64,000 nucleotides of DNA from Ginglymostoma cirratum (GCA_024137785.1 JAHRHZ010000013.1:4431782-4495781), one strand, 5' to 3'. Shown: positions 246 to 57,830, counted from the first letter of the stretch. A program made the numbers and translations. The notes: generated from the sequence alone by a model not told the origin.

Positions 246-1430
246 TCCACGCCGCATCTGCTCCCAGGATGAGACATTCCACTCCCGCACATCTCAGATG
301 TCCTCATTCTTCAAGGACCGCAACTTCCCCCCCACAGTGGTCAAGAACGCCCTCGACCGTGTCTCCCGCATTTCCCGTAACACATCCCTCACGCCCCGTC
401 CCCGCAATAATAACCAAAAAAGAATCCCCCTCGTCCTCACGTACCACCCCACCAACCTCTGGATCCAACGCATCATCCTCCGACACTTCCGCCATCTGCA
501 ATCAGACCCCACCACCAAAGACATTTTTCCCTCTCCACCCTTATCTGCCTTCCGGAGGGACCACTCCCTCCGCGACTCCCTTGTCCGCTCCACACTCCCC
601 TCCAGCCCCACCACACCCGGCACTTTTCCCTGCAACCGCAGGAAGTGCTACACCTGCCCCCACACCTCCTCCCTCACCCCAATCCCAGGCCCCAAGAAGA
701 CTTTCCACATCAGGCAGATGTTCACCTGCACATCTGCCAATATGGTATACTGCATCCGCTGTACCCGTTATGGCTTCCTCTACATCGGGGAAACCAAGTG
801 GAGGCTTGGGGACCGCTTTGCAGAACACCTGCACTCAGTTCGCAACAAACAACTGCACCTCCCAGTCGCGAACCATTTCAACTCCCCCTCCCATTCCTCA
901 GACGACATGTCTATCCTGGGCCTCCTGCAATGCCACAGTGATGCCACCCGAAGGCTGCAGGAACAGCAAATCATATTCAGCCTGGGAACCCTGCAGCCCA
1001 ATGGTATCAATGTGGATTTCACAAGCTTCAAAACCTCCCCTCCCCCAACCGCATCCCAAAACCAGCCCAGCTCATCTCCNNNNNNNNNNNNNNNNNNNNN
1101 NNNNNNNNNNNNNNNNNNNNNNNNNNNNNNNNNNNNNNNNNNNNNNNNNNNNNNNNNNNNNNNNNNNNNNNNNNNNNNNGGCTCCATCCCCGCCTCTTCG
1201 ACTTGTCTGCCTCCTCTCCACCTATCCTCTCCTCTATCCATCCTCTATCCGCCTCCCCCTCTTTCCCTATTTATTTCAGAACCCTCTTCCCCTCCCCCAT
1301 TTCTGATGAAGGGTCTAGGCCCGAAACGTCAAGTTCTCCTGCTCCTATGATGCTGCTTGGCCTGTTGTGTTCATCCAGCCCCACGCCTTGTTATCTCAGA
1401 TTCTCCAGCATCTGCAGTACCTTTTGTCTC
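246..1430 (+). mobile_element. Penelope-like retroelement (Neptune-type), 5'-truncated: RT C-terminus, Cys linker, GIY-YIG endonuclease, 3' terminal repeat
   Basis: ORF 298..1350 has RIPLVLTYHP (PLE RT C-terminal region), PCNRRKCYTC (Cx4CxxC linker typical of Neptune PLEs) and VYCIRC..LYIGETKWRLGDRFAEH (GIY-YIG). Followed by a C-rich tract and a hammerhead-containing terminal repeat. Spans the N gap. Confidence 0.92.
1303..1330 (+). ncRNA. Minimal type I hammerhead-ribozyme-like motif in the PLE terminal repeat
   Basis: CTGATGA-A-GGGTCTAGGCCC-GAAAC-GTC: conserved core boxes, GGG/CCC helix II, palindromic ACGT helix III. Confidence 0.75.
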
Positions 1431-1431
1431 C

Positions 1432-1543
1432 AGACCCGAAGTGTCGGCTTTCCTGCTCCTCTGATGCTGCCTGGCCTGCTGTGTTCATCCAATCCCACAC
1501 CTTGTTATCTCATCCTCCAACATCGGCAGTTCCTACTATCTCT
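1432..1543 (+). repeat. Second, partial and more diverged PLE terminal-repeat unit
   Basis: gacccgaagtgtcggctttcctgctcctctgatgctgc...gcagttcctactatctc repeats the preceding unit without the CTGA box. Confidence 0.8.
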
Positions 1544-1549
1544 GTGTGG

Positions 1550-2600
1550 ATGTACAGGCTTCCTTCACTGTGCTGTTGATATGCCACACACATTCAGGAA
1601 TTATTGAATATCCTGATTCATTCCTGGCCAATACACTTGATGCATTACTTGAGGACGGGCCCAAGTCGAAACTAAAGTGGCAGGTCACCAACAATTGCAC
1701 GCTTTCGGTGCAAACAACATCAATTATGCGATAAGTAAGGCATGCAATTTTTCTTGAAATTTGTAATATATGTGGCACCAAATGTCGTTGAACATGCATA
1801 TACAGGAAATCTGGTTCCGAAACCTAAGCTACATGTCAAAACAAATGACTGGAACCAGCAAGATGACAAAACACAACGCCACTCGCTTCAAGAAAAATGT
1901 TAATATGATGCACAAACATATCAATAAGGCTCAGAGTCAATCAAGTGAAAAGCAAATTTCAGAACATGACCAGGTTTTCAATGGTGTCAACTTTGCACAT
2001 CATGTTGATGGTATAAGGTGATCAGGAACACTTTCAACCATTTAACATTATGTGTCCTGAAAAGGCAGAATGACCGCACAAACTAAGAGCTAAAATTGAC
2101 ATAGGTTAGTACTAACATATTACTGCTACATATCCTGAAAACTATGCATCTTGGCAAGTGGTGATTCACAGTACTGCCTACAAGATAGCATCCTACAGCA
2201 TATGATGGCACATCATTTCCATGCATTAGCGGAATCCCAATGCAGTGCCAAAATGGAAGCTCATCGTGCCTCCCCAAAATCTTCAAGCTGGTCAGCACCA
2301 ACATCCAGCAGTGTCAGGACTATCAATATTCATAGACTTCAGTACGGTCACAATTCATGAGATTCAAACTATACCAACCGGGCCGGAACAGACCACATGT
2401 GATGTAATTGAATCAGTAAATGATTGGAAAAACCTCGAACTAGACAAGTTTGTTTTAATCAACTATTTTAAGGGTGATGCAGTATTGCAATTTAAGGATG
2501 TTATGTCATCATTTATTGATCCTCCAAGGAAGTTCAGTCTGCATATTCAGGAGAAGCTTTGAGTGGAACTGAGTGAAATCAAGTGAAATCTTATGATTTA
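1550..2600 (+). mobile_element. Decayed Gypsy-type LTR retrotransposon gag-protease-pol fragment
   Basis: Frameshifted protease motif LRAKIDIG/STNILLLHIL (~2082-2150), AYDGTSFPCISG (~2198-2235), and FKGDAVLQ..IDPPRKFSLHIQEKL, which resembles the pre-RT region of Gypsy pol. Confidence 0.65.
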
Positions 2601-4839
2601 ATAGGTTGATTGCCTCACAGTTTGATTAAGTTTCATCAAGTCCATTTTAAAAGAAGATAAGCCATAAGATGAGCCTCAGTCCAACAAAGCATACTGCCAT
2701 CCCAACCCTTAACCCTCCCCAAAAAGTTTTGCCATCTCTGCTTTCGCCTCCCACATCAATCTGTCACCAACCCTTCTATTCCCCCTCACTGCAGCATGTC
2801 AGCCTGGCCCTGATGATGACCTCCTCACTTACCTTTGAATTCCTTTGGTGGGTGCATGCAGCAGTAGCCACTTCTCCTGATGGTGCTGTGGGGACCAGTG
2901 AGCTGCTGGGAATTTGATTGGCGAGTAGCTTTCATAGGTATGACTTCCTTCTCAGATGGGGAGCAGAAAGACGATGAAGCAAGACCTGTAGATCCCAACC
3001 TAGAAAGCTGGAAGCAACAAATCTACATAATGGTGTTTGTATAAAATAGTTACTGAGGTTGGTGTCTGAGATTTACTGAAGATTGGACAGATGGAATTAT
3101 AATGAAGGATAAAAAAATGCCAAGATATTAAGCTACATAATTCTAGTGAGTGCAAGTGCAGCAAGATAAAACAGGTTAATGTGTGGCTGGGGAAATAATG
3201 CAAGAAAGAGTACTTCTGATTTCTTGATACTATGTTAGCCTAGATTGTGGATTGGTTTGTGATCAGAAAATAGAGCAGAAATAAGTGAAATGTGAAGATC
3301 GTGTACTAAATTGTAGTTAAGGCTGAAGATCAGCCCTGATCTTGTCGAACAGTGCAGCTAATTCGAAGAAATAGTGACCTTTCATATTTCCTGACTGCCT
3401 AGGTTTTATTCCTTCTCCATTCTTATACCTTTATCAATCCTTTTTCAATTGCTAAATACTATCCTGTCTTCTATGGAAGACCAATAATAATGTGCTATAT
3501 CACTGTAAATAAATCTGTTCATCAGTTTGGTGTATATTACCTAAACTTGCGACATCTACCATTTTTGTACTTAGAACTGTTCCATATTATACATGGTAAT
3601 CCAGAAAGGTTCCTTATCCTTCAATATCCCAAACTTTAAAATTATGTGCAATTTAGCCTTTTTTATTTTAAATAAGACAATCTAATCCTTCCAATGGTCC
3701 CACTATCCCTACTTCTGCAACCTGCTATAACCCTATATTTGTCCAAGGTTTATGTACTCTTGACTTCTTGGGCTTGCTATTTTTTCGTTATTTCACCATT
3801 GGCAGCTGGGTATTCAGCTTTCAAGGCCCTTGAATTTACCTTCAACCTCTTTGCTTCTCTGTCTCACCCCCTTAAAGCTAAAGAAACCTAATATTTTGAC
3901 TAACATTTTAGTCATATGTTCTAATTGTCCCTTCTGTTAATCAGTGACAAATTTATTTAGCTAACATGCTATATGACTATAAACAGTTGTACAGTGCCTT
4001 GCACTATATAGATACCTGTTGTTATTGTTGTAGTATACATGTTATGGTAGTGTCAATACCAGCTTTCTGAATATCTCCAAGTTTTTTTGTATTCAGCAGA
4101 ATGACTCAAGGGCTGATAGCTAAATGGGCATTGAAGCTTCTAAGGTCGATATAATGTTGCCTACCAACTACACTAATTTAAGATTTGGAAAGAATTTAAA
4201 TGGGAAATTTTATTTACAATATCCTTAAAGCATTCTTACATTAACAATGCTGTTTGACTTACAACATGGACATTTGAACCAACGATGTCATAACTAATTC
4301 CCTCTAGTATCCTAGGTGATCAAATCAATATCCCTTATTTTATGAATCTATACAAAAAAGACCTGTGTATCAACCTTAAATCCAGAGGTTTGCTGACCTG
4401 ACACATAGATTATAAAAGATTGCAATGATTCTATGTGTAGCAGTGCAGAACAGGGATAGCTGCAGTGCTACCCTCTAGAGTATTAGAAGCTAAATCCACT
4501 GCATAATAAAACAGCTCCTTCATATGGAAGGAAGTGTGGAATAAAATAGCCATTCAGCCCATCAAATTCATTTCCCCTGTAAACCATGTACATTTTAATC
4601 CTATTGTTTAATCCTTTCTTTCATGCATCCTTACATTATTAATGCTGCCTGGCTATCAACACAGATATTTGAACTAATAATGTCATAGCTAATTCATTCT
4701 AATGTCCTAGGCAATCAAATTAAATTCTTTGTATCTGTATAGGTACAGAAACAAATTTGCATAATTATTATATTTCATCTTGAGAAAAGGATATGGTAAG
4801 TTTCAAATGGGATGATAGCCAAACTGCAGTGCTTTCCCT

Positions 4840-4936
4840 TTTCTGAAGAAGGGTCTAAGCCCGAAACGTCAGCTTTCCTGCTCCTATGATGCTTCTTGGC
4901 CTGCTGTGTTCATCTAGCTCTACACCTTGTTATCTC
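4840..4936 (+). mobile_element. 97-bp hammerhead-bearing PLE-derived monomer with 9-bp TSD
   Basis: CTGAAGAAGGGTCTAAGCCCGAAACGTC at 4843-4870; GCTTTCCCT at 4831-4839 and 4937-4945. Confidence 0.85.
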
Positions 4937-5264
4937 GCTTTCCCTGAAGTTGTCTTGCTGCACTAAAGTACACATTCCAACCCTCCTTCAGTGGAATGCC
5001 CTGTAGTGATTTACTTTAACCTCTCTAATATGTCACAGGTATCCAGTAAAACATACAGCAGTTTCAATAGGTTTAAAACAGCATGAAGTAGACGCAATGA
5101 AAATTGGTAGCCAATTTCTCACCACTCCAGTTTTACTTTCCATTAACTTTGTACGGAAGTATGGTTAGCTCATATTTAACCAAATCTGCGCTGTAACTTG
5201 ACTAAATTTACTGTACCAGCATGCTTTGAGAAACTGAGTGCTGTTTTCCTGGCAAAATTCTCTA

Positions 5265-6120: not shown

Positions 6121-6352
6121 ATTTTCTGATGAAGGGTCTAGGCCCGAAACGTCACGTTTTCCTGCTCCTATGATGCTGCTTGACCTGCTGTGTTCATCCA
6201 GCCCCATGCTTGTTATCTCGGATTCTCCAGCATCTGCAGTACCTTTTATCTCTGATTTTCTGATGAAGGGTTTAGGCCCGAAACGTCAAGTTTTCCTGCT
6301 CCTATGATGCTGCTTGACCTGCTGTGTTCATCCAGCCCCATGCTTGTTATCT
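6121..6352 (+). mobile_element. Head-to-tail dimer of the hammerhead-bearing unit (period 134 bp)
   Basis: Cores at 6126-6153 and 6260-6287, both with CTGATGA and GAAACGTC. Confidence 0.88.
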
Positions 6353-7136: not shown

Positions 7137-7455
7137 TTCATAGAATCCCGACTATGGAACTGGCCATTCAGCCTAACGATCTACACTCACGCTCCAAAGA
7201 GCATCCTACCCAGACCCATTCCCCCTTACTTATCCCTGTAACCCTGCATTTCCCATGGCTAACCTACCTAATTTACATATCCCTGAACACTATGGGTAAT
7301 TTAGCATGGCCACTTCACATAACTTGCACATCCTTGGACTGTGGGAGGAAACTACAGCACGTGGCAGAAACCCACACAGACATTCACTGACGGTGAAATC
7401 AAACTCAGGTCCCTGGTGCTGTAAGGCAGCAGTGCTAACCACTGAGCCACTGCGT
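7137..7455 (-). mobile_element. HE1-type tRNA-derived SINE
   Basis: Reverse complement of the 7908-8198 family: tRNA-like head (gtggctcagtggttagcactgctgcc) and ggattctatg tail. Confidence 0.8.
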
Positions 7456-7907
7456 TATGGACTTCAGTTTTTTTTTCAACTCCACACACCCTAACCTCGT
7501 AACTTGTTTTGCGTATATGCGTGTCATAATAAAACAACCACTTGCTAACTTTAAGAGATCTGTCTGGCTTGTTTCTTCATCACTTTTCACACATTCCGTT
7601 GCAAATGGAATGAATAAAAGCATACCTTTTCAAAAATGCAAGTTCTGTTATACCAACATCGAGAGTGAAAACAGAAGAAGTTATTTCCCCCATCCAGACT
7701 TGGTCACTACTGTATTATTTCATTCAATATTAGAAAAGACTGGCAGGTCTCGCAGTATCTTTGCAGAGAGAAACTGAGTTAACCTTTCAGGCTTTTATTC
7801 AAAACCTTTCTAATGATGTTCTAATGAACGGTCTTGACCCGAAACATTAACTCTGAACTAGATCTTCCAGTCTCTCTACAGTCAGGCACCAGATGTGGTG
7901 TGGTTTG

Positions 7908-8198
7908 GGGCGGCACAGTGGCTCACTGGTTCGGACTGCTGCCTGACAGTGCCAGGGACCTGGATTCGATTCCATCCTTAGGCGACTGTCTGTGTGGAGT
8001 TTGCACATGCTCCTCGTGTCTGCGTGGGTTTCCTCCAGGTGCTCCAGTTTCCTCCCACAATCCAAAGATGTGTAGGCTAGGTGGATTGGCTATGCTATAT
8101 TGCCCATAGTGTCTGGGAATGGGTCAGGGTGGGATACTCTGAGGTTCAGTGTGGACTTGTTGGGCCAAAGGGCTTGTTTCCATATTGAGGGATTCTAT
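7908..8198 (+). mobile_element. HE1-type tRNA-derived SINE
   Basis: A-box-like tggctcactgg, B-box-like gattcgattcc, central gtgtggagtttgcac...ggtttcctcc domain, gggattctatg tail. Confidence 0.85.
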
Positions 8199-8439: not shown

Positions 8440-10640
8440 CTTCAGATAACTGATGAGGCCAACCCTGGTTCCACAGATTCTAGTGCAGTGTGAGCATTGA
8501 TGTGTGTTAATGGTGTTTGGAGGTGGTGTTGGATGGGCCATCCTGACGTTCTATCTCTCCTTGCGCAAGTGTTGCTTCAGTTCAACTACGCAGGAAGATA
8601 ATTTTTGTGGTGTATAGCACCCCACTGGATAATGTTTCTCCAGTCCTCCCAGTTGTTGATATGGAATTTCTTGAGGTTGGTCTGGATGTTATCTTTGAAG
8701 CATTTCTTTCGGCTGCAGAGGCACGCTGACCATCCTTCTGCTGGGAGTACATGATTTCGGGAGGCATGAGTTGGGCATTTGGATAACATGGCCAGTCCAT
8801 CGGAATTGCTATTGAATTACGGTGGTGGTGATGCTAGCCATGTTGGCCTCCTCCAAGATGCTGGTGTTACTGCACTTGTTTTCCCAGGTGATCCGCAGGA
8901 TTTTTTGTACGGATCTCAGTGCTTTAAGGTGCCTTCTACGGGTCGTCCACATTTCAGCTCCATATAGCAGTGTGGGCTTCGTAGACCAGAGGTTTAGTCT
9001 AGGCCTGTAGATCATGGTCTTCAAACACCCTTTTTGCATCAGGCATAGGCTCCACTGGCACAGCTCAGATGGTATTGTATTTCTGCATCAATATTGGCCT
9101 TGGAGGAGAGAAGACTGCTGAGATATGGAAAGTGATCTACATTTTGAAGGGAATGGTTTTTGACTCTTATTGTAGGATGGGTGAAGGGACTATTGAATGG
9201 TCGTTGATAGCGTACTAGAGTCCTTTGTTTTATGTTAAAGGTAAGGCCTAGGAGCTTGTATGCTTTGGTAAACCATCCAAGATGCACTGCAGATCTTCTG
9301 CATTGTGCTGCAATGGTGTTGTTGTCAGAATATTGAAGCTCCAAGGTGGAAGTGGTGGACACCTTGCCCTTGGCCTTGAACCTTTTAAGGTTGAATAGCT
9401 TGTCATCCATATGGTAAATGATTTGAATTGCCTTGGGCAGTGAGGCCAGCGAGATGGAGGATGGTGAACAGGCTGGTTGCAATGATGCAGCCCTGATTGA
9501 CTCCTGTCAGCACAGTGAAAGGCTCAGTCTCCAATCCACAGTTGCTAAGCACTGTCACAGACATGTCATCACGCAGCAGCCTCAGTATCCTGATGAACTT
9601 ATCGGGGCAGCCGCATTGTGACAGTATCTGGAAGAGATCTTGGTGATTAATTGTGTCAAAGGTCTTAGTTAGGTTGATGAAGGCCATGTAAAGCAGTTGT
9701 TTCTGTTCCTGACATTTTTGTTGTAACTGACCTGCTGTAAAGATCATGTTTGTTGTTCCTCTGGATGGGCAGAAGCCACACTGCGACTCAGGGAGTATTT
9801 CTTCAGGTAACGGCAGAAGTCTCTTGGCAAGGACATGTGCAAATGCTTTGCCTGTGGTTGACATAAGGGAGATACCTCTAATTTCCAGTCACCCAGTCAC
9901 AAACAGACTATCTATGAGCTCTGAGGGGTGTTCTTCTTTGAACCAAATCTTCAAGAGCAAAGCATGTATGTGTTCATGGAGCTGTGAGCCATCCTCCTTT
10001 AGAAGCTCTTCAAGAATCCCTTCAGGACCAGAGCCCTGTTGTTTCTTAGTCTCCTTATTGCACCTTTTGGTCACACTGGGAGGTTCAATTTCCATGTCAC
10101 TCTCATCTACCCAGCCCTGATATTTTCTGGACTTATTGCAGGAACTGAGAATAGTTGGTTTAAGAAGATTCCAGTGTTTTCCTATGTCCACTGGGTAATC
10201 CCAATGTAAGTTTTTAGCAAGTGAGGCCTGTGGATGTTGCTTAGTGACCATATCATCCAGGCTCTCGATGTTGAATCTTTGCCAGGTCTGCTTCTTTTAA
10301 GCCCTTGTCTTTCTGTGTAATCTAATGGACATAGTGGAATGGATAAGGGAGTGATCAGTCTAGCACTCAGCTGAGCCAACCATAGCCCTGGTGACATTCA
10401 CGTCCTGATGATCCCTGGAGCGAAAAATGACATAATCAATGACACGCCATTGTTGAGCGTAGATGTCTCCAAATTGCTTGAATTTGTTTTTCTAATGGAA
10501 GTGTGTATTTGTGATGGTGAGCTTATACTCAGCACATTTTGTGAGAAGAAGGGCTCCATTAGAGTTGAAGTTGCCAATACCTTCCCTTCCTATGGTGCCA
10601 TTCCAAGGATTGTGGTCTCAACTAACACTGACATTTCTTT
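8440..10640 (-). mobile_element. Decayed RTE-clade LINE (APE C-terminus and RT)
   Basis: Minus-strand fragments IDYVIFRSRD..DVNVTRAM, KRLLPLPEEILPESQCGF..RGTTNMIF..QLQQKCQEQ..LYMAFINLTKTFD, LELQYSDN (degenerate YADD), VDHFPYLSS, PTLLYGAEMW; many stops and frameshifts. Confidence 0.9.
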
Positions 10641-30978: not shown

Positions 30979-31013
<35 letters not shown>

Positions 31014-31889: not shown

Positions 31890-32201
31890 AATTCCCCTTC
31901 AAGTCCCACCTCGTCCATTCCACCTTCTGACCCTCCCTTCCAGCCACCAATTGGATTCATCCCTCCCATTGACCAACCAGGTCGTACCTACTACCAGTGT
32001 CCACCTATCACCACCATTCCGCCTCTATCCCTCCCTCTTCTCTTTATCTGCAGATCCCACTACCCCACATCCAGTGCTGAAGAAGGATAATACCTGAAAC
32101 ATTGACTGCTCCTTTCCTCCAGATGCTGCTTGGCTTGCTGTGTTCTTCCAGCCTCCTGTCTGTCTACCTTGGATTCCAGCATCTGCAGTTTTTTTGTCTC
32201 T
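31890..32201 (+). mobile_element. Diverged PLE 3' fragment with degenerate hammerhead core
   Basis: C-rich tract then ctgaagaaggataatacctgaaacattg...ccagcatctgcagtt. Confidence 0.65.
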
Positions 32202-33521: not shown

Positions 33522-34771
33522 AGATAACAAGGTGTAGAGCTGGATGAACACAACAGGCCAAGCAGCATCAGAGGAGCAGGAAAGCTGATGTTTCGGGTCT
33601 AGACCCTTCTTCAGAAATGAGGGAGGGAAGGGGATTCTGAAATAAATAGGGAGAGAGGGGGAGGCGGATAGAAGATGGATAAAGGAGAAGATAAGTGGAG
33701 AGGAGACAGACAGGTCAAAGAGGTGGGGGTGGAGCCGTAAAGGTGAGTGTAGGTGGGGAGTTGGGGGGAATAGGTCAGTCCAGGGAGGACGGACAGGTCA
33801 AGGGGGCGGGATGAAGCTGATAGGTAGAAGATAGGGGTGGGGCTTGAGGTGGGAGGAGGGGTTAGGTGGGAGGAAGGACAGGTTAGGGACGCGGGGTTCC
33901 GGAGAGAGGAGGGTAACTTCTTCAAGGTAGGCATCCTTAGAAGAGGCTTTGCAGTGGGGTTAAAATTGTTTCAGAGATAGTAGGAACTGCAGATGCTGGA
34001 GAATCTGAGATAACAAGGTGTAGAGCTGGATGAACACAGCAGGCCAAGAAGAATCAGAGGAGCAGGAAAGCTGACGTTTCGGGTCTAGACCCTTCTTCAG
34101 AAATGAGGGAGGGAAGGGGATTCTGAAATAAATAGGGAGAGAGGGGGAGGCGGATAGCAGATGGATAAAGGAGAAGATAGGTGGAGAGGAGACAGACAGG
34201 TCAAAGAGGTGGGGGTGGAGCCAGTAAAGGCGAGTGTAGGTAGGGAGTTAGGGGGGGATAGGTCAGTCTAGGGAGGACGGACAGGTCAAGGGAGCGGGAT
34301 GAGGCTGGTAGGTAGGAGAGGGGGGNNNNNNNNNNNNNNNNNNNNNNNNNNNNNNNNNNNNNNNNNNNNNNNNNNNNNNNNNNNNNNNNNNNNNNNNNNN
34401 NNNNNNNNNNNNNNNNNNNNNNNNNGGATGAGGCTGGTAGGTAGGAGAGGGGGGTGGGGCTTGAGGTGGGAGGAGGGGTTAGGTGGGAGGAAGGACAGGT
34501 TAGGGATGCGGGGTTCCGGAGGGAGGAGGGTAACTTCTTCAAGGTAGGCATCCTTAGAAGAGGCTTCGCAGTGGAGTTAAAATTGTTTCAGAGATAGTAG
34601 GAACTGCAGATGCTGGAGAATCTGAGATAACAAGGTGTAGAGCTAAAGGAACACAGCAGGCCAAGAAGCATTAGAGGAGCAGGAAAGCTGATGTTTCGAG
34701 TCTGGACCCTTCTTCAGAAATGGGGGAGGGGAAGGGGATTCTGAAATAAATAGGGAGAGAGGGGGAGGCGG
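33522..34771 (-). mobile_element. Tandem array of ~486-bp non-coding PLE-derived units, three hammerhead cores, single TSD
   Basis: Units start at 33522, 34008, 34625; cores at 33587-33614, 34073-34100, 34690-34717; flanked by ATAGATGGGCAA (33510-33521) and ATAAATGGGCAA (34772-34783). Contains the second N gap. Confidence 0.85.
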
Positions 34772-34814
34772 ATAAATGGGCAAGTGTTTATTAACTAGCT
34801 GCAAGAGTCCTCTT

Positions 34815-37590: not shown

Positions 37591-38656
37591 CACCATCTTT
37601 TCTCTGACTGCTAACACTCATTCTGTCTCTGTTACTGTACCCACCTCCCACCAAGGCTCCTGATCCACCAGTCTCACTATTGATTGAAACATCTTTCCTC
37701 ACTCACAGTCATCCATCCCAACACGTCAAAACCACTAACCCTGCATCCTCTCGGTGCTGCCTACTCACTGACTTAGAACGCCTCTCCACCTGGACAGAAA
37801 GCAATAGCTGTGCCACCCACTTGCATCTCCCTTAATACGTGCCTCTTTCTGTTTCTCTCTCAGTGTAGGGGATAACAGTCCCCATTAGGGCAGAAACAGT
37901 CAAGGTGGCCCAATGTATGCCTTATCACCCCTTAAAAGGAGGGCATTCTGAGAGCAAGTAAAGTGCGATTGGTCAAAGCATTACCATGCAGTGTGAATGC
38001 CTGATGAGAATTAGTGTATTTCTTTCTCACTCTCCAACTTGAAGGGGTCGGTTCCCCAATTGATTTTGCGGTCACTTTGCTCATTCTTCCTGTAGTCCCT
38101 GGTGTCATCCACACAGCTTGCAAGAATACTTAACATTTGAACAAGTGCAAGGGCTGGGTCTCCAAATGCTTCTTTTCATATCTCCATACTTGCTTGACCC
38201 ATAGTCAGACCCACTTGCCCATGTCCAAGGAGAAAATCTGCATATACTTACAGATATATGTAGGTATATATATTATATACACACACACAAGGCCTTGTCC
38301 TCTGCAGTAAGGAAGGGAATATCCAGGCAGTATTTATGGTTTGAGTTAAACAAAGAGTGTGGGACAACAATCATCTCCTCAATTTGAGGATAACACCTAG
38401 GATCATGAGTTTTTGCCTTGGCTCTTCATGTGACTGACAGGCTGATTTTCAATACACAGATGTTTGAGCACATGAGCAATGTGTCCCAAAGTAAGCGTTC
38501 CTTCTAATTTTTTTGCAGCTTCACAGGCCTCTGGGACCATGTGCTGAAGTGACCGGAAGTCAATGCCGCAATCAGTGTGTTAGAACATTGGAGCAGCTCT
38601 GCGCATGAAGCTTAGGGGAAACATTGTCCAAAATGAAATAGGACCTGAAGTGCAGA

Positions 38657-38888
38657 GATAATAGGTACTGCAGATGCTGGAGAATCCGAGATAACAAAGT
38701 GTGGAGCTGGATGAACACAGCAGGCCAAGCAGTATCATAGGAGCAGGAAGGCTTGACGTTTTGGGCCTCGACCCTTCATCAGAAATAGCATCAGAAATGA
38801 AGGGTCTAGGCCCGAAACGTCAAGCCTTCCTGCTCCTATGATGCTGCTTGGCCTGCTGTGTTCATCCAGCTCCACACCTTGTTATCCT
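38657..38888. mobile_element. Fold-back pair of hammerhead-bearing units with 11-bp TSD
   Basis: TGAAGTGCAGA at 38646-38656 and 38889-38899; arms are reverse complements; both cores damaged. Confidence 0.88.
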
Positions 38889-41860: not shown

Positions 41861-42718
41861 TGTGATAATGCTATGGCTTTAAGAGGTGTAGTTTGTCCTC
41901 TTGTTTTTTTTGAAGAAAGGTTTTGAGCCATAGGTGAAAAGTTGTTTCCTCCAAGCCAATAAAGTAAACAGCTTGTGAGGCCTTGGATTTGTTTAAAAAG
42001 TTGGAATAATAGAAGCAACATGAATGGATGGAGTCAGGGTCCCACAGAACCAGGATTTTAGTTTAACTTTCAGCAGTCGTTATGGTTTTGAAGTTGGCTA
42101 TGGAATCTGTTACTTCCCACTCTCCCTCTCTGTTACAGCAAAAGCCTTGGTTCTCTTTCTTCCAGAATCACATGTGAGACTATCTGTTTTACTGAGTTTC
42201 CCTTTGCCAAGGGTGTTTTTTTTGCGATGTTACTATATTGCTGTTTAGTAGTTAAATAATCTATTATTTTGTTAAGCTTTCTAACAAAGTTGTATTAATT
42301 CTTCTTTCTTTCCTTTGTATTTTAGCTGGGTAAGAATAAAGTGTAAACAAACAGAAATTGCTGAAAAAGCTCAGCAGGTCTGACACAACTGTGGAGAGAA
42401 ATCAGAGTTAACATTTCGAGTCAAGTGTACCTCCTTCATTTCACTCGACATGAAACGTCAACTCTGATTTCTCTCCACAATTGCTGCCAGACCTGTTGAA
42501 CTTTTCCAGCAATTTCTGTTTTGTTTCTGATTGACAGAATATGAAGTTCTTCCAGTTTTTATTAAAAATAACGTGTGTTTTGCTTAAAGCCAAATAGTGT
42601 GACAAGTGGAATTACATCTGGAACACAGAACCTTATACTTGCTCTTAAATAAGATAAAAGTTAGGGTCTAGTCTACCTCCCTGATATATTTGTAGAGAGT
42701 TTAGTCTGGTCCGTGACA
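41861..42718 (+). mobile_element. Probable solo LTR interrupting a CR1 fragment
   Basis: TGT...ACA termini and internal AATAAA; CR1 sequence (tggaaa..aaat / ctgtttaagaaaggag) resumes on either side. No clean TSD. Confidence 0.5.
42345..42566. mobile_element. Fold-back pair of the older hammerhead-like family, nested in the LTR
   Basis: Inverted arms; AATAAAGTGT (42335-42344) and AATAACGTGT (42567-42576) as TSD. Confidence 0.75.
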
Positions 42719-43515
42719 CTGTTTAAGAAAGGAGAAATACAGAATGGACAAAACTATAGATTAGTTGTCATAATACCTTTGTTTGAGAAAATGTGGGAAT
42801 TCATTATTAAGTAAGTAGTAACAACATACTTAGGAAACTTAGAATGTTTAGAAACAGACTCTGTTACTGTAATCCTGAATGTATACAATTTGTGAACGAT
42901 AACAAAGGGTGGTCAAGATGAGACATTTAGTGAATGTTATTAGTTTTGGCAACAAAGTGAAAACAGTCTCAGAGCTGTTATAAACAAACATGGCAGATAA
43001 TTTCCATTCTCATTTTATTTAACTAAACTCATTTGAAGTGCTTTGAACAGCATATTAAGCTTGAGATATGTAACAGAAGAGGTTATGTAGTTTTGATTGC
43101 TGACAGTTTTAAATTTAAACTATGTCAGCTATCAAAAGGGATATTGTCTGTTTCAAATGTCCACACAGGTGTTTCATGTGAATACATCTTTCATCTTACT
43201 GTAGACACATCAATATGCCTCAGGACAACTTCAAGCTTTTGATTTTTTGCTCCTAAGGATGATCTACTTTCAATGAACCTTGCAACCTAGTCCTTATGCT
43301 CAATGAGGTAATATTTTTTCATATAATGTTGGAAAAATATATGATATTGGAGGAAAATGTTCTTAATCTATACTGTCAAAAAAGTCAAGCTATTTTATAT
43401 AGCTATACAGTTGAATACAGTTTTATACAGTTGAATGAGAAATAGGAATCAATAAAGATATTAATATATCAGGAAAAATATAGTTTTTCATTGCAGCCAT
43501 AACCTACAATCTATT

Positions 43516-43655
43516 CAGAGACAGTAGGAACTGCCGATGCTGGATAATCTGAGATAACAAGGTATAGGGCTGGATGAACACACAGACCAAGCAGCATCAG
43601 AGGAGCAGGAAAGCTGACGTTTCAGGTGTGGACCCTTCTTCAGAAAAAAAAATGC
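43516..43655 (-). mobile_element. Hammerhead-bearing monomer with 9-bp TSD
   Basis: CAATCTATT at 43507-43515 and 43656-43664; gacgtttcaggtgtggacccttcttcag. Confidence 0.85.
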
Positions 43656-43779: not shown

Positions 43780-45620
43780 TAACAACAACTTATTTTTGAA
43801 TCATGTTTTGAATGTCACAAACCAGCCCAAGGCATTTCACAGTCTGTTCACAGTCAAATAGGCAGACTTCAATGAGTATTTTAAATAAAATGTGTGATAA
43901 AGAGACAGAGGGATAGATGAAGGGCATTTTAATTCTTGATGGATGACAACATGGTGGAGTGATTTAAACTGGGGAAGCTCAAGTTTGCAGGAATAGATGG
44001 CTGAAAGTATTTTCAAGCATTTTGAGCCTTAAGGAGATTACAAGGAAAGGAAGGAGCTAAGATTTGAAAAGAAGGATGCAAATTTTTAAATCAAGTAATT
44101 ACTTAATTGAAAGTCAACAATAATCAGTGAACACTGGTGTGATAGGTGAATGAAGGTTTGATGCAAGTTAAGAAAGGAGAAGCAGAGTTTTGAGTGATCT
44201 CATGTTAAGAAACAAATGAAGTTTCAGCGCACATGTGCTGCCACAGGCTTAAGTTGGGGAGAAGGAAGTGGTCCTAGTCACAGCAAGAGTATGTGGTCAA
44301 AAACCCATCTCAGGATCAAAAATAACACTAGGGATTGTGAAGTTTCCTTTAGTCTCAGTCAAGAAATGGGGTTAACGGGTAAAAAAGCTTTGGTAGCTAG
44401 CGTACAGAGTTTGGAGCTGGTACCAAAAACAATAACTTCAATCTTCCCAATATTTAATTGGAATTTTGGTCACTTTTAGTATTGTTAGTTGCATAATCAA
44501 GAAAGCTGTGAGTCATCACTGCTCATGTAAAAACTCATGCTGTAGTTTCTGTTGATACCACTGAAGAACTGCATGTCAATGAAGAATAGGAGGGTGTCCT
44601 GAATAGATCATTTTGGGACACAAAATGGTGCAGGAGCAGGAAGGGAAGCTGTTGTGTGGTAGAGTTAGATTGATAAGTATGTAACTGGGGAAAACAATCC
44701 CAGCCAAGTGAATGACAGTGAAACAGAGACATTGGAAAGGAATAGTAAGAACTGCCGATGCTGGAGTCAGAGATAACATAGTGTGGAGCTGGAGAAACAC
44801 AGCAGGCCAGGCAGCATCATAGGAGCAGGAAAGCTGATGTTTTGGGTCAGGACCCTTCTGATATTCTGAAGAAGGGTCCCGACCTGAAATGTTAGCTTTC
44901 CCGTTCCTCTGATGCTGCCTGGCCTGCTGTGTTCCTCCAGCTGAACACTGTGTTATCATTGGAAAGGAATGATGTTTTTAACCATGTCAAAGGCTGCAGA
45001 CATACCACAATCCTCTGTCCACTTCTATATTAAAGTCATGAAGTGGGATAGTTTGCCTTTGTCACAGTCATATTGATTGTCATTTGTACTTTTGATACGG
45101 ACTGTTTTGGTTCTATGTCATAGATGGAAATCTGATGGAAAGGATTAAATCATGGAGTTCCAGTAAGGGATTTGGGAAGTGACAATATGTTTGAGACATT
45201 GAGTTTGGAGATTGGACAGTAGTTTGCAAAAACCAGGAGACTTTAATTTGTGGATGGGAGTGATAACAGCTGATATTACGGAGAGAGGGACAATGCTTGA
45301 AGAGTGGGAGTTATTTACCACATCGACTAACATGGTAGCCAGGATGGGAAATCAGTGATCAACAGTTTAGAGAAAGTAAGATTTAAGGGAACAGGACGTG
45401 GGTCTAATAGATAATATAAGATTGGAGAAGGCACGAGGAGAAAATGGGCAAAAAGATAAGAGAAAATTGCAAGTTCAAGACTAGGGCATCAGAGATCTTT
45501 AAAGGAAGTTTGACCCAGTTGTCTACTGACAGGGAGGAACAGAGCAAAGACAGCTTCACCGTAAGGTCTTGATTATGATGACACAGAAATCCATGAGCTC
45601 CTCACACTTAATCTTTGAAG
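43780..45620 (-). mobile_element. Old L2-type LINE
   Basis: Minus strand carries remnants such as tctgcagcctttgacatggtt (SAAFDxV), a GVPQGS-like segment and atgcagttcttcagtggtatc region; heavily decayed. Confidence 0.65.
44744..44956. mobile_element. Fold-back pair of hammerhead-bearing units with 14-bp TSD
   Basis: CATTGGAAAGGAAT at 44730-44743 and 44957-44970; cores degenerate. Confidence 0.88.
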
Positions 45621-45984
45621 GGAGGTAATGGCATCTAATACTAAGACGCTGGCATAGTATGTCTTCAACACAAGATAGCACCTTCTTGACAAACCAGGTG
45701 TTAGAAGTGCCCCACCTTCCTCCCAAAACACCTTTCAGAAAATTGTTAAGGGCTAATTGATAATTAAACTACCTGCACATGTTTGTCAAAGAGATTGCAC
45801 TGCATTTTTGGTGAATAATGTTTCATTTTGTGACCTCTCATAACAGTATCCAGCTGAACAGGCACAAACAAATAATTGCCGAGCATTTTGAGCATGACCT
45901 CAAACTATGTGCAGCTGTCAATGTTCATTAAACAAAAAACAAAGAGCTGCAGAGGCTGAAAATATAAAACAAAAACAGTCCAAA

Positions 45985-46181
45985 AGTGGGCAGTTTAGAT
46001 GGATTGGCCATGCTAAATTGCCCATGGTGTCCAGGGATGTGCAGACTAGTCGGATTAGCCATGGGAAATGTAGGGTTACAGGGATAGGGTACAAGGGTGG
46101 GTCTAGATGAGATGCTGTTCGGAAGGTCGGTGTGGACTTGATGGGCTGAATGGCCTGTTTCCATACTGTAGGGATTCTATG
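45985..46181 (+). mobile_element. 5'-truncated HE1-type SINE
   Basis: ggattggccatgctaaattgccc...gtagggattctatg. Confidence 0.8.
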
Positions 46182-46329
46182 AGAAATTGCTGGAGAAATT
46201 CAGGCAGCATCTGTGGAGAAAAAGCAGAGTCAACATATTGGGTCTAGTGATCCTTTTTCAGAATAGTTCTGTATTGCTTTGTATCAATGTTCACTAACTG
46301 ATTGTGATTTTGCATTGCATTTGATGGGG

Positions 46330-49066: not shown

Positions 49067-49069
49067 AGC

Positions 49070-51614: not shown

Positions 51615-52800
51615 AACAAGGTGGATGAACACAGCAGGCCAAGCAGCATCATAGAAGCAGGAGAGCTTGACGTTTCGGGCCTAGACCCTTCTTCAGAAAT
51701 GGGGGACGAGAAGGGGGTTCTGAAATAAATAGGAAGAGAGGGGGAGGCAGATAGAAGATGGATAGCGGAGAAGATAGGTGGAGAGGAGACAGACAAGTCA
51801 AAGAGGTGGGGATGGAGCCAGTAAAGGTGAGTGTAGGTGGGGAGGTAGGGAGGAGATAGGTCAGTCCAGGGAGGACGGACAGGTCAAGGGGGCAGGATGA
51901 GGTTAGTAGGTAGGAGCTGGGGGTGGGGCTTGAGGTGGGAGGAGGGATTAGGTGGGAGGAAGGACAGGTTAAGGAGGCGGGGACGAGCTGGGCTGGTTTT
52001 GGGATGCGGTAGGGGAGGGAAGATTTTGAAGCTTGTGAAGTCCACATTGATACCATTGGGCTGCAGGGTTCCCAGGCAGAATATGAGTTGCTGTTCTTGC
52101 AACCTTCGGGTAGCATCATTGTGGCACTGCAGGAGGCCCAGGATGGACATGTCGTCTGCGGAATGGGAGGGGGAGTTGAAATGGTTCGTGACTGGGAGGT
52201 GCAGTTGTTTAGTGCGAACCGAGTGTAGGTGTTCTGCAAAGCGGTCCCCAAGCCTCGGCTTGGTTTCCCCGATGTAGAGGAGGCCACACGGGAACAGCGG
52301 ATGCAGTATACCACATTAGCAGATGTGCAGGTGAACATCTGCTTGATGTGGAAAGTCTTCTTGGGGCCTGGGATGGGGGTGAGTTGGGAGGTGTAGGGGC
52401 AGGTGTAGCACTTCCTGCAGTTGCAGGGAAAAGTGCCGGGTGTGGTGGGGCTGGAGGGGAGTGTGGAGCGGACAAGGGAGTCACGGAGAGAGAGGTCCCT
52501 CCGGAAGGCAGATAAGGGTGGGGAGGGAAAAATGTCTTTGGTGGTGGGGTCGGATTACAGATGGCGGAAGTGTCAGAGGATGATGCGTTGGATCCGGAGG
52601 TTGGTGGGGTGGTACGTGAGGACGAGGGGAATTCTGTTTTGGTTGTTGTTGCAGGGAGGGTGTGTGAGGGATGAGTTGCGGGAAATACGGGAGACACGGT
52701 TGAGGGCGTTCTCAACCACAGAGCAGGGGAAGTTCTGGTCCTTGAAAAATGAGGACATCTGAGATGTACGGGAGTGGAATGCTGCATCCTGGGAGCAGAT
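51615..52800 (-). mobile_element. Neptune-type PLE, 5'-truncated and mutated; same family as 246-1430
   Basis: Near-identical to 246-1390 on the minus strand (GIY-YIG region with frameshift and stop); hammerhead core at 51669-51696. Confidence 0.92.
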
Positions 52801-53062
52801 ATCTCCCTCTCCTTCCTGGACCTCTCTGTCTCCGTCTCCGGCAACCACCTAGAAACTGATATCCATTTCAAGCCCACCGACTCCCACAGCTACGTGGAAT
52901 ACATCTCCTCCCACCCACCTTCCTGCAAAAAGCCATCCCCTATTCCCAATTCCTTCACCTCTGCTGCATCTGCTCCCTGGAAGAGGCATTCCAATCCCAT
53001 ACATCTCACACCTCTACACCTTTGTTATCTCAGATTCTCCAGCATCTGCAGTTCCTACTATC
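52801..53062 (+). mobile_element. Inverted 5' segment of the PLE (RT motif E region) joined to a terminal-repeat end
   Basis: LSFLDLSVSVSGNHLETDIHFKPTDSHSYVEYISSHP; possible TSD TCTAAATTTTGGTT (51601-51614) / TCTTAATTTTCGTT (53063-53076). Confidence 0.85.
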
Positions 53063-54135
53063 TCTTAATTTTCGTTGATCTTTGTGCACTTCTGTTGCTA
53101 TTCTAGGCTTGACACTGTCTTGGGAAATCCTACAGCTTTGCTCCATACCACTTTTGGCATTCCACAAAGGACTCATTTAGACATTCCTTAATCTACTTTT
53201 GTGAGCAGCAGCGTTAAATACTTCTCCATACTACCTCACTAATATTCCCACCAAACATGCCCAGTGGAAGCTAATCGTGATCATTTCCTCTGCATCCCAC
53301 AAATGCCTCTTTATGGACACTTCAAGCAGATAGACTATCCTCACACCTCACCACCTCTTCTTTCAGACGAAGGCCATTGCTGTCTATGGGTTCATTGAGT
53401 TTGGCTGCACTTAAATCAGGGCCTTGACAGAAACTTGTCTGAGGGATGATTACACTTTTCTGATAAATAAAGACCCAAACCTTTCGATAGAATCAGATCC
53501 TCTCATTACAATGCAGATTAGACAAAGCATTATCTCCTCCGGTTACTCTGTTCTTTCTGGATAGTCTTCTAATGTGAAATCATTCCAACCTCAGTCAGAA
53601 TAAGGATCCTTCTAGGGAGCCAAGCAGAGGAGCTATGCAGAAGCCACACCCCTTTTGTAGACACTGGCTGCTGTCTTCTTTGAAAAGCTATAAGGGGAAT
53701 GTATAAAGCGATAGGGTGACAGGATGGTAGGATGGTAGCTGGGTGGAGTGGCACAGTCCAAGAGTGGCAAGGTGGTAGGTGACTGGTGTAGCAATTGGAT
53801 CAGGTGGCAGGAAGGTAGAGAAGTGAAAGGAGGTGAGGTGAAGTTGGTGGAGCAGGTTTGAGGGTTGGGGTGGGTATGGGTAAAGCAAGACGTCTGGAGA
53901 AACCCAGGGATTCAGGCAGGGTGGGTTCTAGAGAGATGTCAGAGGGTAGAGTGGAGTCAGAGAATTGTGGGTTAGTAGGAGCATATGGGGTCAGGAGGCT
54001 GTTGATTGATTTAGTGGCCAGTGAGTTTGGTTGATTGAGGACAATGGGATAGAGTTTGGAAGGGTCAGTTGTACAGTTATCAGACATTAGACAAGGGTTT
54101 TACTGCTTGCCATTTCGTGGCTAGCTATCCAGGTC

Positions 54136-54910: not shown

Positions 54911-55739
54911 ATGGGCATCAGCCACCAAATCTCTCTTCCATGGACATTAGCATTCAGTATGTGCCAGCCTCTAGCAACCCCTCATGGTACATCTCTGATC
55001 CACTTACAGAAAATGTCTTTACTTCAAACCTGCACCTCCAGCTGTATTGATAACTATTGTTGTAATACTGCAGGAAGGAAACTGTGTTCAGGGGTATATA
55101 TTCAGCTCATAGACTGGACCAGATTGCATCTCCGGGCTCACCACTTGCTGTCATAATATTCAATCTCTCTCCATCTCTCTGAGCCTACCTGGATGTTCAT
55201 AGGATCACTGCTTCTCATTACCTTGCACTTTCAGCCAGAGAATCCCGGTTTACATTTCAATTTCACCACAGTTGTCAGCAAGTCTAAGTTAAGTCAAGGA
55301 GGATAACCTTTGCTCAGAGGATGCAGTAAGTCAAAGGCCACCTCCAATGCCAGTCCAGGGACTTAGAAATGGTCAGTCACCCACTCAGTCGTCAGAATCA
55401 GGCAGCTGCCCACATAAGAGGTGAGGAAACAAATGTCGGGTAGCTCACCAACCGTCTTGAGTCTTTCCACATTATTGTACTGTTTTCCTCCTGGAATGAG
55501 CAAGAAGTAGTTATTGCTTATGATTAAAATGAGCAGAAGTGCTGTTGATTTTGATACAGGTGGAAAGGTCTCCAAAGTGAGTAAGTAAGCAACACAGAGG
55601 GTTAGTGATATTGCAATTTGGGATGGCGAGTGGGGGAAGATGTTGCAATCAGTAATGGGTGGTAGAGCATGGGTTTTGGTTGTGGATTCGTACTGTTGCA
55701 GAGATTGAGGGTGTGAGGTATCAGAGAGAAGATGGTGGC

Positions 55740-55995
55740 ATTTATGCTTGTGGAGCAGAAAAGCACATTGACCTTCTTGCTACAGTGCTGGGTATTCCTC
55801 CAGATGGCTGAGGTTTCACTGAGCCTGGCAGACACCTCAGAACAGTCTAGCATGATCCAGCATTGTGAGCTCTACCAACTGGATGTCCTGTTCTGCGAAG
55901 ACTGTGCGGACATCACCCCATCCAGAGGGACTTCTAGGTTCCTGCCCGCAAAGTAGGGTGCCAAATTTCCCTTCTCTGCCATTTCTAGGGCAAAT
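55740..55995 (-). mobile_element. Harbinger-type Myb/SANT-like remnant
   Basis: MAEKGNLAPYFAGRNLEVPLDGV...SEVSARLSETSAIWRNTQHCSKKVNVLFCS. Confidence 0.65.
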
Positions 55996-57039
55996 GCCCA
56001 GAACCATGCAAGGCAGCTCCAAATTGATAGTACTTGTCCAGGTGCACAATCAAGTTTTATAGATGCCACTGGCACCAGGGATGCTAGTCAATTCTGGGAT
56101 GTATTGTCAGTGATAAATTTTTCCAGCAATGGTACAAGGTAAAATGGGGACTGAATCGGCTGGGAAGGTCGCCAAAGGGACAGAGTAGGTAGTTAATGAG
56201 GTGAGATTGTTAAGCTATGGTAAGGAAAAATGATGAAGTTTCACATCAAAACACCCTCCAAAAACTCAACGCAACTACCACTTAGCTAAAATTAAATAAG
56301 ATTCAGCCTGGAGACTTTGGTGGTTCCCAGAACTAGGGGACATTCCCACTGGAAGTTCAGACTTCATGAAGAAATTACAGTGTTCTTGCATCTGGACTTC
56401 GCTGTGGTCCTAGTATATACTTTGGGGTGCATCTAGTCTCAGATAATCCCCCGCTTGACTATACTATTCACCACTTGTCACGTCTAGACCATTGTAGCAG
56501 CAGCGTTTCACTTGTCACCAATTGTATCCTCATCTGCTGTAACTCCTCTGACACTTTCCCCTCCTTTCAGCATTTTGTCTTGTTCGCCTTCATCTCTCAA
56601 TTAAAGTATTTGTTCTCTACCACCTCCCAAGCAACAAAATGTTTTCTGACTAAAATATCTTCACTGTTTTTCTCTTAGAGGTTTCTGCGCAGAGCGACTT
56701 CTCATCCTAAGCGATTTCAGCTTCCATTCCAACTCATTGATTTCTCTATCCTGTCATTCACTGCCCTTTTATGCTCCCTTAATCATTCCCTCCACATAAA
56801 CTCTCTAATACATAATCACAGTTACCCTTTGACCTTAGTATTTCCATCATGTTCATCACAGATATTGCCATGTCTGATCACTGCATGAATTACTCTCCAC
56901 TCACATTCCTCTTCCTCCTTCAGTTTCTGCAAAAAGGGTAAGCTCGCTCCCAATTCACTGATAATTTTCCTGACTCTGACTCGTTAGTCATCACAACATA
57001 TCTGCAGCTAGCTATCTACCCATTCACACCTCCGACTTA

Positions 57040-57830
57040 ACACCATAAGAAATAGGAACAGGGGTAGGCTAAGATAACAAGGTGTGGAGCTGGATGAACA
57101 CAGCAGGCCAAGCAGCATCATAGGAGCAGGAAAGCTTGACGTTTCGGGCCTAGACCCTTCATCAGAAATGCATTTCTGAGCAACCTGTTTAACCATTGCT
57201 CAGAAATGCATTTCTGATGAAGGGTCTAGGCCCGAAACGTCAAGCTTTCCTGCTCCTATGATGCTGCTTGGCCTGCTGTGTTCATCCAGCTCCACACCTT
57301 GTTATCTCGGATTCTCTAGCATCTGCAGTACCTATTATCACAGGAGTAGGCTGTTCGGCTCCTCGAGCCTGCTCCACCACTCAACAGGATCATTGCTGTG
57401 TTTTTCCTGTAACCTTTGATTCCTCAACTGATCAAGAATCTATCTCAGCCTCAAATATACATGAGGACTCTGCTCCCATAGCTGTCTGTGACACGGAGTT
57501 TAAAAGGCTTTCGGACCTCTGACAGAAGAAAGTCATTTTCATCTCAAGACTTAAATTGGCATCTCTGGTCCTAGAACCCTCCCGTGAGGAGAAGCATCCT
57601 CTCAACGTTTACCCTGTCAAGCATCTTAAGAATCCTATATGTTTCAATAAGGTTACCTCTCATTCTTCTAAACTGCATTGAGTAGAGTCCCAACCTGTTT
57701 AACCATTGCTCATAAGACAATCCCTCCATGTCAGGGATCTAATGGATCTTCTATAAACTGCCTTCAATGAAATAACACCTTTCCTTAAATGAGGGGACCA
57801 AAATTACTCTCAATACTCCAGATGCCTCAG
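57040..57830 (-). mobile_element. CR1 3' fragment hosting the 57071-57339 insertion
   Basis: ataagaaataggaacaggggtaggc 3' end; ctcattcttctaaact; ggggaccaaaattactctcaatactccag. Confidence 0.8.
57071..57339. mobile_element. Near-perfect fold-back pair with two intact hammerhead cores and 13-bp TSD
   Basis: Cores at 57138-57165 (minus) and 57214-57241 (plus); ACAGGGGTAGGCT (57058-57070) / ACAGGAGTAGGCT (57340-57352). Confidence 0.9.

Follow-up and report, generated by a model that had tools for sequence, protein, structure and literature searches.

Short hammerhead-bearing repeats of Ginglymostoma cirratum are terminal pieces of a Penelope-like element and probably run-off copies of its leader

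A stretch of 64,000 nucleotides from Ginglymostoma cirratum (GCA_024137785.1 JAHRHZ010000013.1:4431782-4495781; hereafter the window, with positions counted from its first letter) contains repeated short units built around a minimal hammerhead ribozyme motif, which raises the question of whether these units are a mobile family of their own or pieces of the Penelope-like elements (PLEs) found in the same window. An earlier note, made from the sequence alone, listed 15 copies and regarded them as a ribozyme-delimited family resembling short interspersed elements (SINEs) or retrozymes and mobilised by the reverse transcriptase (RT) and endonuclease of the PLE. All 15 copies were found in their places. 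The unit is the end of the PLE pseudo-long terminal repeat (pLTR); it has two alternative 3′ ends and a sharp 5′ boundary upstream of the predicted ribozyme cut, and it forms no separate lineage. The short units are probably run-off copies of the PLE leader, with the RT starting inside the leader and the RNA 5′ end located at the base A(−4).

Positions within the unit are counted from the C of CUGA (C3) as zero; the predicted cut lies between +27 and +28. Copies were sampled in sixteen 100-kb blocks at round coordinates of the 4.36-Gb assembly that contains the window and was used for all genome-wide counts. Seven all-N blocks were dropped, and the remaining 876,480 bp contained 147 matches, or one per 6 kb. 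The 3′ ends in the sampled blocks were bimodal, at about +93 and at +126..+135, and correspond to the PLE "tail". The 5′ ends were scored in 121 of the 147 matches, with the exclusion of matches next to N, with a 3′ end before +72 or with a start after +60. It was found that 47 copies began at −6..+2, 35 extended beyond −45 and 2 began at +26..+30. The 5′-end hazard per nucleotide was 0.0028 at −44..−7, 0.078 at −6..+2, 0.011 at +3..+25, 0.0035 at the cut and 0.0017 at +31..+60. Thus the 5′ ends are strongly non-random, as the earlier note had expected (0.078 vs. 0.0017–0.0035 at +26..+60).

Genome-wide exact searches were performed with junction patterns consisting of 32 element letters preceded by two non-template letters at −4 and by three at the cut, +38 and +24. 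They revealed 3,609 junctions at −4, as against 583 for the cut and 236 and 109 for the positions +38 and +24; after a correction for flank composition made by hand, these numbers were approximately 5,700, 1,300, 530 and 310, respectively. In another 3,206 copies, C(−5) follows a letter that differs from the template; these represent a mix of −5 starts, microhomology and mutated long copies. Some hairpin junctions occur twice in the lists, about 455 bp apart, so the junction counts are not counts of independent events. The DNA boundaries are located at −4 and not at +28, approximately 30 nt upstream of the predicted cut, and the term "ribozyme-delimited" does not apply to the unit.

AT-microhomology alone was rejected as the cause of the boundary: among 128 copies, no end was found in TATTTATTT, a longer AT-run at −37..−27, and only one in the TTTT run at +30..+36. 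A splice acceptor was also rejected, since no AG precedes −4; the acceptor-like TTTCAG lies at −29..−24, and one 5′ end was found between −40 and −8. No published −4 boundary or start-site explanation was found in the literature passages searched.

Two of the copies (1303 and 51696) terminate GIY-YIG-coding PLE fragments, as claimed before. A genome-wide search with the endonuclease fragment of the window gave 127,827 first-look candidates, and long open frames were analyzed in 20 fetched loci. Most of these loci contained near-identical RT and GIY-YIG frames of 700–850 aa, therefore the PLE family is young. In the 850-aa frame of the locus L042, RVT_1 and GIY-YIG exceeded the Pfam cut-offs, with the RT followed by a C-terminal GIY-YIG. 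The insertions have pLTRs, an inverted 5′ arm, an optional tail and a variable target-site duplication (TSD), as is characteristic of endonuclease-bearing (EN+) PLEs. The linker CNRRKCYTC matches the CX2-5CxxC Zn finger preceding the endonuclease; this motif is common to Neptune and Nematis and absent in Poseidon (PMC8557442). The element was putatively assigned to the Neptune type from this linker motif, which Nematis also has. The full-length copy L051 has the organization pLTR–open reading frame (ORF)–pLTR, its hammerheads are 3,646 bp apart and the tail is followed by a first ATG at +166, which indicates that the unit comprises the pLTR end and the leader ahead of the ORF. Exact matches to the 28-nt young core number 55,274 genome-wide, and extrapolation of the sampled density gives approximately 350,000 copies if 2.1 Gb is readable, or 730,000 on the full length. 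The first PLE insertion of the window spans 250–1544, with an inverted arm at 1–244, and its PLE (250..1430) is 94–97% identical to L051. Its features are as follows:

1..244, − strand: inverted 5′ arm (ORF end/upstream pLTR sequence), continuing past the left edge of the window
250..1430, + strand: 5′-truncated PLE, putatively Neptune-type, with the end of the RT region, a CX4CxxC linker, GIY-YIG, pLTR, hammerhead and long tail
1268..1274, + strand: putative promoter element, a TATA-like TATTTAT box lying 31 nt before A(−4), the boundary base
1297..1303, + strand: initiator-like CC-A-TTTC; the A at 1299 is where short copies most often begin and the putative transcription start
1299..1334, + strand: predicted minimal type I hammerhead, a candidate ribozyme (helix I 5′ strand 1299–1302; CUGAUGA 1303–1309; extra A 1310; helix II 1311–1322; GAAA 1323–1326; palindromic ACGU replacing helix III; predicted cut after 1330)
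1432..1544, + strand: second unit in tandem, of an older subfamily, starting within helix II and having a long tail

The sequence around A(−4) points to the 5′ end of an RNA. In the pooled sampled blocks, window and selected loci, a run of at least four T before CUGA was found in 17 of 56 short copies vs. 0 of 106 long copies (p = 2e-9). Genome-wide, the base preceding A(−4) is G in 2,197 cases, A in 1,121 and T in 291, i.e., G constitutes 61% of the non-C bases, compared with a background of 26% and with 20 G among 100 listed cut-site rows counted by hand. An untemplated 5′ G in full-length LINE-1/SVA insertions was read as a copy of the cap (PMC4859970). Tail-to-head dimers were rejected as the source of the G excess, accounting for only 16 of the 2,197 cases. 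In addition, TATTTAT is located at −31 from A(−4) in 30 of 42 long copies and within 1 nt of this spacing in 34 of 42, and A(−4) sits inside CC-A-TTTC. By comparison with the TATA and initiator consensus sequences, the upstream box is TATA-like and the context of A(−4) is initiator-like, which suggests a promoter role.

A second PLE family, which differs in helix II and tail and has a protein identity of 43–53%, showed the same pile-up, with 21 of 30 5′ ends at −5..+3. It contains a TATAAA-like box about 29 nt before TC-A-GTT, where A is likewise at −4, and has no C-tract; ORF remnants were found upstream in 5 of 8 long copies. Of the RNA-seq runs, X20 comprised 16 reads, and X19, the one useful run, came from an unstranded poly(A) library. 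The X19 depth was 160–420 over the ORF start, a region without sampled genomic copies, vs. 30–110 further in; this weakly supports a start at A(−4), the library being unstranded and dominated by passively transcribed copies.

A number of observations weigh against the reading of the short units as run-off copies from A(−4). AT microhomology to the element's own arms predicts 60–67% G. Twenty inspected G-junction loci included 9 flagged inverted arms, about 4 restarts or tandems and about 6 solos on genomic flank (the last two classes assigned by eye); if this solo share holds, approximately 660 solo G cases (with a wide interval) would still outnumber all 291 T cases. The G excess in the small sample was modest (11 of 24 non-C). 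The TATA and initiator motifs are short, and such motifs are common. In Penelope of D. virilis, the promoter is TATA-less, and an intron separates the hammerhead from a start located well upstream (PMC2377424; PMC4209133), so the TATA/−4 geometry is not general. In the unstranded poly(A) library X19, no site where many molecules begin or end was found. By an automatic rule, a TSD of at least 9 bp was detected in only 8 of 35 solo short copies. Finally, cut-site junctions were 2–4 times as frequent as those at the two control positions after flank correction, and some cut RNA may therefore be copied; this excess is soft, because at least 21 of 100 listed cut-site rows resemble 1-nt indel variants of the intact motif and many follow an A-run.

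The pile-up at −4 could also arise if the template extended further upstream, without any start at −4, and the RT was stopped either by the folded or protein-bound hammerhead, on reaching its 5′ edge, or by the adjoining C-rich tract, the stalled cDNA then being joined by microhomology. The boundary does match the helix I 5′ strand exactly in both families, the hazard is already raised at +3..+25, the main family has the C-tract directly upstream, and the protein of the Anolis element PAc aids hammerhead folding in vitro (PMC11167929). However, an RT moving 3′ to 5′ has passed helix II and the core before −4, the second family has the same boundary without a C-tract, the TATA/initiator spacing occurs in both families, and the stuttered T-runs are confined to short copies. 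An RT barrier is thus an unlikely explanation.

The reading of the earlier note, i.e., a separate ribozyme-delimited SINE or retrozyme with its own masters and self-cleaved or circular RNA, would account for the discrete length, TSDs, very high copy number and intact core of the units, for the window's single head-to-tail dimer and single three-copy tandem and for the mild junction excess at the cut; animal retrozymes also derive from pLTRs (bioRxiv 10.64898/2026.07.22.740005). Besides the boundary located 30 nt upstream of the cut, the phylogenetic analysis contradicts it: a tree of 94 copies (60 short and 34 long) contained 31 label changes vs. a shuffled mean of 28.1, with no short-only clade. 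Short copies were present in each successive subfamily and interleaved with long ones; the best short-to-long identity was 93.7% and the best short-to-short identity 94.4%. No source lineage with private diagnostic changes, as a SINE would have, and no internal Pol III promoter with A and B boxes were revealed: an A box was absent from the unit at one mismatch, and the single B-box-like match has 2 mismatches and lies inside helix II. The short copies also lack the upstream TATA-like box. Retrozymes consist of head-to-tail units, each with a complete ribozyme and delimited by its cut; here, two local tandems were found in the window, and the cut does not delimit the unit at the DNA level. The junction of the window dimer is tail-to-(−4) and not the cut, and this exact junction occurs 16 times genome-wide vs. 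55,274 cores. The deletion junction of the tandem at 33522–34779 has 2 genome matches, both within the window, and this tandem was rejected as a dispersed retrozyme family. Thus, a separate family is largely refuted and highly improbable, and the repeats should be annotated under PLE fragments and not as a SINE. The spread by the PLE RT and endonuclease, also proposed in the earlier note, is borne out indirectly by the TSDs and pLTR identity.

In the window, the 15 copies represent 9 insertion events, namely 2 5′-truncated PLEs, 2 solos, 1 dimer, 1 tandem and 3 head-to-head pairs. Further pieces were found at 1432–1544, 53022–53065 (tail only) and 32000–32200 (a diverged relative). The copies and events are the following:

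1303, 4843, 6126, 6260, 44866 and 57214, + strand: C of CTGA, located from the sequence
33614, 34100, 34717, 43643, 51696 and 57165, − strand: C of CTGA, located from the sequence
38653–38786 (− strand), 38797–38886 (+ strand) and 44742–44858 (− strand): the remaining listed copies, which are arms of pairs
4839..4936, + strand: solo short unit (−4 to +93, no tail) with a 9-bp TSD GCTTTCCCT at 4831–4839 and 4937–4945
6121..6352, + strand: head-to-tail dimer of a long-tail and then a short unit, each starting A-TTTT (one extra T)
16385..16480, − strand: short copy of the second PLE family with the same hammerhead core, start at about −1
25823..25915: fold-back pair, belonging either to the second family or to one related to it
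32000..32200, + strand: pLTR end that has diverged from the main family (about 71%), its hammerhead core being at 32077
33522..34779, − strand: single 1.26-kb insertion with three hammerheads, a partial tandem of an internally deleted PLE; the repeated content is the pLTR end, the tail and about 75 nt of the ORF start, the copies include upstream pLTR sequence, and the TSD is about 12 bp with one mismatch
38653..38886: head-to-head pair of a long-tail arm (−, ending at −4) and a short arm (+), with a restart piece between them and an 11-bp TSD TGAAGTGCAGA
43515..43653, − strand: solo long-tail unit with the T-run extended from 3 to 8 and a 9-bp TSD AATAGATTG
44742..44957: head-to-head pair of an older subfamily, with a long arm (−), a short arm (+) and a 14-bp TSD CATTGGAAAGGAAT
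51622..53065, − strand: 5′-truncated PLE (52800 to 51622, short 3′ end) with an inverted ORF arm at 52804–53008 and a tail piece at 53022–53065 on the + strand
57072..57339: young head-to-head pair of a short arm (−) and a long-tail arm (+); each arm ends at −5, the filler is palindromic and the 13-bp TSD has one mismatch

The six TSDs of 9–14 bp reported in the earlier note are real, but they enclose insertion events (the 2 solos at 4839–4936 and 43515–43653, the 3 head-to-head pairs and the three-copy partial tandem) and not individual units. A TSD was also searched for around the dimer at 6121–6352 and was not found. In the sampled blocks plus the window, 50 of 161 copies form 25 head-to-head pairs, 16 of which are surrounded by one 9–17-bp TSD (0 of 176 in the mismatched-flank control). 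Of 23 scorable pairs, 21 consist of one long-tail and one short arm (p = 3e-5). An inverted pLTR, an optional 30–40-bp tail and a TSD are the published structure of EN+ PLE insertions (PMC8557442; PMC3846280). In the in vitro study of PAc, both strands were cut and extended, two internal RT starts defined the tail, and uncut RNA was the main substrate (PMC11167929). By analogy, the long-tail/short pairs fit the extension of both strands from two internal start sites.

Long insertions in L042, L045, L047, L059 and L060 are likewise head-to-head, with inverted arms of 0.6–2.7 kb, and both arms of L042 carry intact RT and endonuclease. In L055 (4194–4226), a copy begins at −4, crosses the hammerhead and then shows a T-run microhomology jump into the ORF, resulting in a 714-aa open frame. 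The filler between the arms of the young pair (57171–57208) is a nested palindrome that includes, folded back, a short stretch of the unit's first bases; this suggests that, at the end of the template, self-priming took place and synthesis restarted repeatedly.

The following mechanism can be proposed. The short units are copies of the last 97 or approximately 131 nt of the pLTR of the young PLE. The RT would start at two "tail" sites in the leader (+93 and about +127) and run off the 5′ end of its template, mostly uncut RNA with a predicted capped 5′ end at A(−4), the first base of helix I. The endonuclease would nick both strands 9–17 nt apart, and each nick could prime, one per start site, so that a head-to-head pair would arise within a single TSD. 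On reaching the end of its template, the RT would stutter on the U-run and may copy the cap; the cDNA end would then be joined by microhomology, or the RT would restart and form dimers. Short copies, which lack the TATA-like box, are probably dead. The ribozyme cut, if it occurs (probably as a dimer or with the help of a protein), would remove a capped 32-nt leader. Since the units mostly start about 30 bases before the cut, at the likely RNA start, they are probably dead-end copies and not a ribozyme-cut mobile family. Taken jointly, a transcription start at A(−4), internal leader priming, run-off, double priming and dead copies make up an account that we consider likely.

Two other origins of the template were considered. 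Short capped leader RNAs could be transcribed from many truncated pLTR promoters and moved in trans by the PLE enzymes, in which case the short units would have numerous sources and would not derive from the autonomous mRNA. Long truncated copies retain the TATA-like box and both RT start sites, the pLTR sequence alone sufficed in trans in a rotifer (PMC3846280), and the same 5′ boundary would be expected. However, the 3′ ends stop at +93 or about +127; among the matches read, with no systematic search made, there was no copy family with a transduced flank; and the PAc RNA signal includes sequence downstream of the start sites that truncated copies lack (PMC11167929). Mobilisation in trans is thus quite unlikely. 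It is also rather doubtful that the short units are strong-stop products comparable to those of retroviruses. In that case the RT of PLEs in this clade would begin near the 5′ end of the capped RNA (the first 36 nt being the hammerhead), run off and normally jump to the homologous 3′ pLTR to complete the copy; the units would then represent jumps that failed and became fixed, and the ribozyme would act as a self-decapping switch on that RNA. This possibility is weakened by the fact that 0 of 106 long copies carry the stutter of the short ones. Linkage, expressed as mean |D′|, was 0.49 across the −4 boundary, 0.55 upstream and 0.87 downstream, with no break specific to −4 (60 copies; gap columns inflate the upstream set).

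The assignment of the motif to the minimal type I hammerheads of the PLE kind is supported. A generic minimal-hammerhead descriptor gave 80 matches in 940 kb (window plus sampled blocks) and 0 matches in an order-2 Markov sequence of the same length, which means that the motif is not due to chance. The core, the extra nucleotide after A9, G10.1-C11.1, the palindromic helix III stub and the NUH triplet are all present. The two features that raised doubts in the earlier note, an additional A following A9 and a short helix I, are normal in PLE minimal hammerheads (PMC4209133). The core is intact in 14 of 14 youngest long copies. The earlier note also suggested comparing the core with its flanks: per-column conservation of the core was not above that of the flanking leader, as expected of dead copies, but the core is kept between families with differing tails, which appears to be the stronger sign. 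Rfam gave no hammerhead match at E ≤ 5 in the whole window; its 16 matches were all below the gathering score, the best being microRNA models on fold-backs.

Helix II is 90.6% paired in the window alignment, with covariation not above shuffles (17 rows, one of them from a wrong region, 47490–47545); in long copies the pairs G-C, G-C, G-C and U-A or U-G are kept across subfamilies and in the second family. Helix I is fully paired (4 pairs) in 14 of 14 copies of the youngest subfamily and in the second family, with one mismatch in the two older classes; its pair 3 is U-G in young copies, G-C in the second family and a U.C mismatch in older copies, and pair 4 is A-U, but A.C in one subfamily. The predicted pairing probability of helix I in the folded monomer is at most 0.006, and in the main family, cofolding puts a duplex of two molecules through helix II at about −29 to −34 kcal/mol, more favourable than the modelled dimer at about −13; activity would therefore depend on a partner or a protein. 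Helix II (1311–1322, 33595–33606) is a perfect or near-perfect 12-nt palindrome through which two RNAs can pair, and, judging from the models, it could be a dimerisation site. In young subfamilies, the AUG of the core (CUG-AUG-A) opens a 14-codon upstream frame 7 nt from the putative start (+3 to +47 in the 5′ pLTR leader of L051; 1306–1350 in the window). The cut would remove this AUG; older subfamilies have A there and no AUG.

Hammerhead-headed short copies or fold-backs of at least one other PLE family were found at 7821–7860, 16385–16480, 25823–25915, 42349–42480, 46216–46254 and 58614–58880. Decayed pieces of a separate reverse transcriptase of the long interspersed element type are located on the − strand at 9039–10296. 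A different dispersed repeat family of 120–200 bp, about 70–80% alike (7231–7382, 7990–8113, 20116–20307, 27720–27944 and 45967–46182), is probably an older SINE.

If the proposed reading is correct, a very large set of genomic copies records the PLE RNA start and shows uncut RNA to be the usual template, in agreement with the one in vitro study, and the ribozyme lies at the very first base of the transcript, where its cut would remove the cap. A young element with intact frames makes exact and cheap tests possible.

Published PLE minimal hammerheads (PMC4209133) share with the motif described here the CUGANGA/GAAA core, G10.1-C11.1, a nucleotide left unpaired between 9 and 10.1, a short helix I and a palindrome at 15.2-16.2 in the absence of helix III. 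The published motifs are likewise mostly single and dispersed, "probably related to truncated PLEs", with opposite-strand pairs. Helix II here has 4 bp plus a loop, unlike the published 7–8 bp, and the accessible text does not describe the first base of the motif as the dominant 5′ boundary of copies. EN+ PLE insertions (PMC8557442; PMC3846280) have the same inverted 5′-truncated arm, tail at one end, 9–17-bp TSD and partial tandems, and the rotifer Pen2a pLTR has TATA and initiator-like motifs, as here (PMC3846280). Their 5′ truncation is described as variable, whereas approximately 39% of the copies here end in a 9-nt window; unlike in the insertions described, both arms here are often leader-only.

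The Anolis Poseidon element PAc (Frangieh et al. 2024, PMC11167929) shows the same extension of both strands, two internal starts defining the tail and an uncut template, as well as an RNA-seq peak where pLTR and ORF join, as here. PAc belongs to the Poseidon clade without the linker Zn finger, while the element here has the linker; in PAc, both the start sites and the ribozyme cut fall within the ORF, and here they are upstream of the ATG. No mapped transcription start is described in the accessible part of that study. The animal non-LTR retrozymes (bioRxiv 10.64898/2026.07.22.740005) are likewise non-coding and pLTR-derived, with a type I hammerhead and dispersed monomers. They are defined as tandem repeats with a complete ribozyme in each consecutive unit and are thought to move via cut or circular RNA, while here one finds single or inverted units whose boundary lies upstream of the cut. 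Full-length LINE-1/SVA insertions (PMC4859970) likewise have an extra 5′ G at the boundary, and their inversions arise by twin priming; they depend on a different RT class, and in the present case priming would be internal and close to the 5′ end, and the G signal is confounded in part. The hammerhead type and the insertion structure were known, and the T-stutter, the genome-wide G count and the promoter-like geometry in two families come from this analysis.

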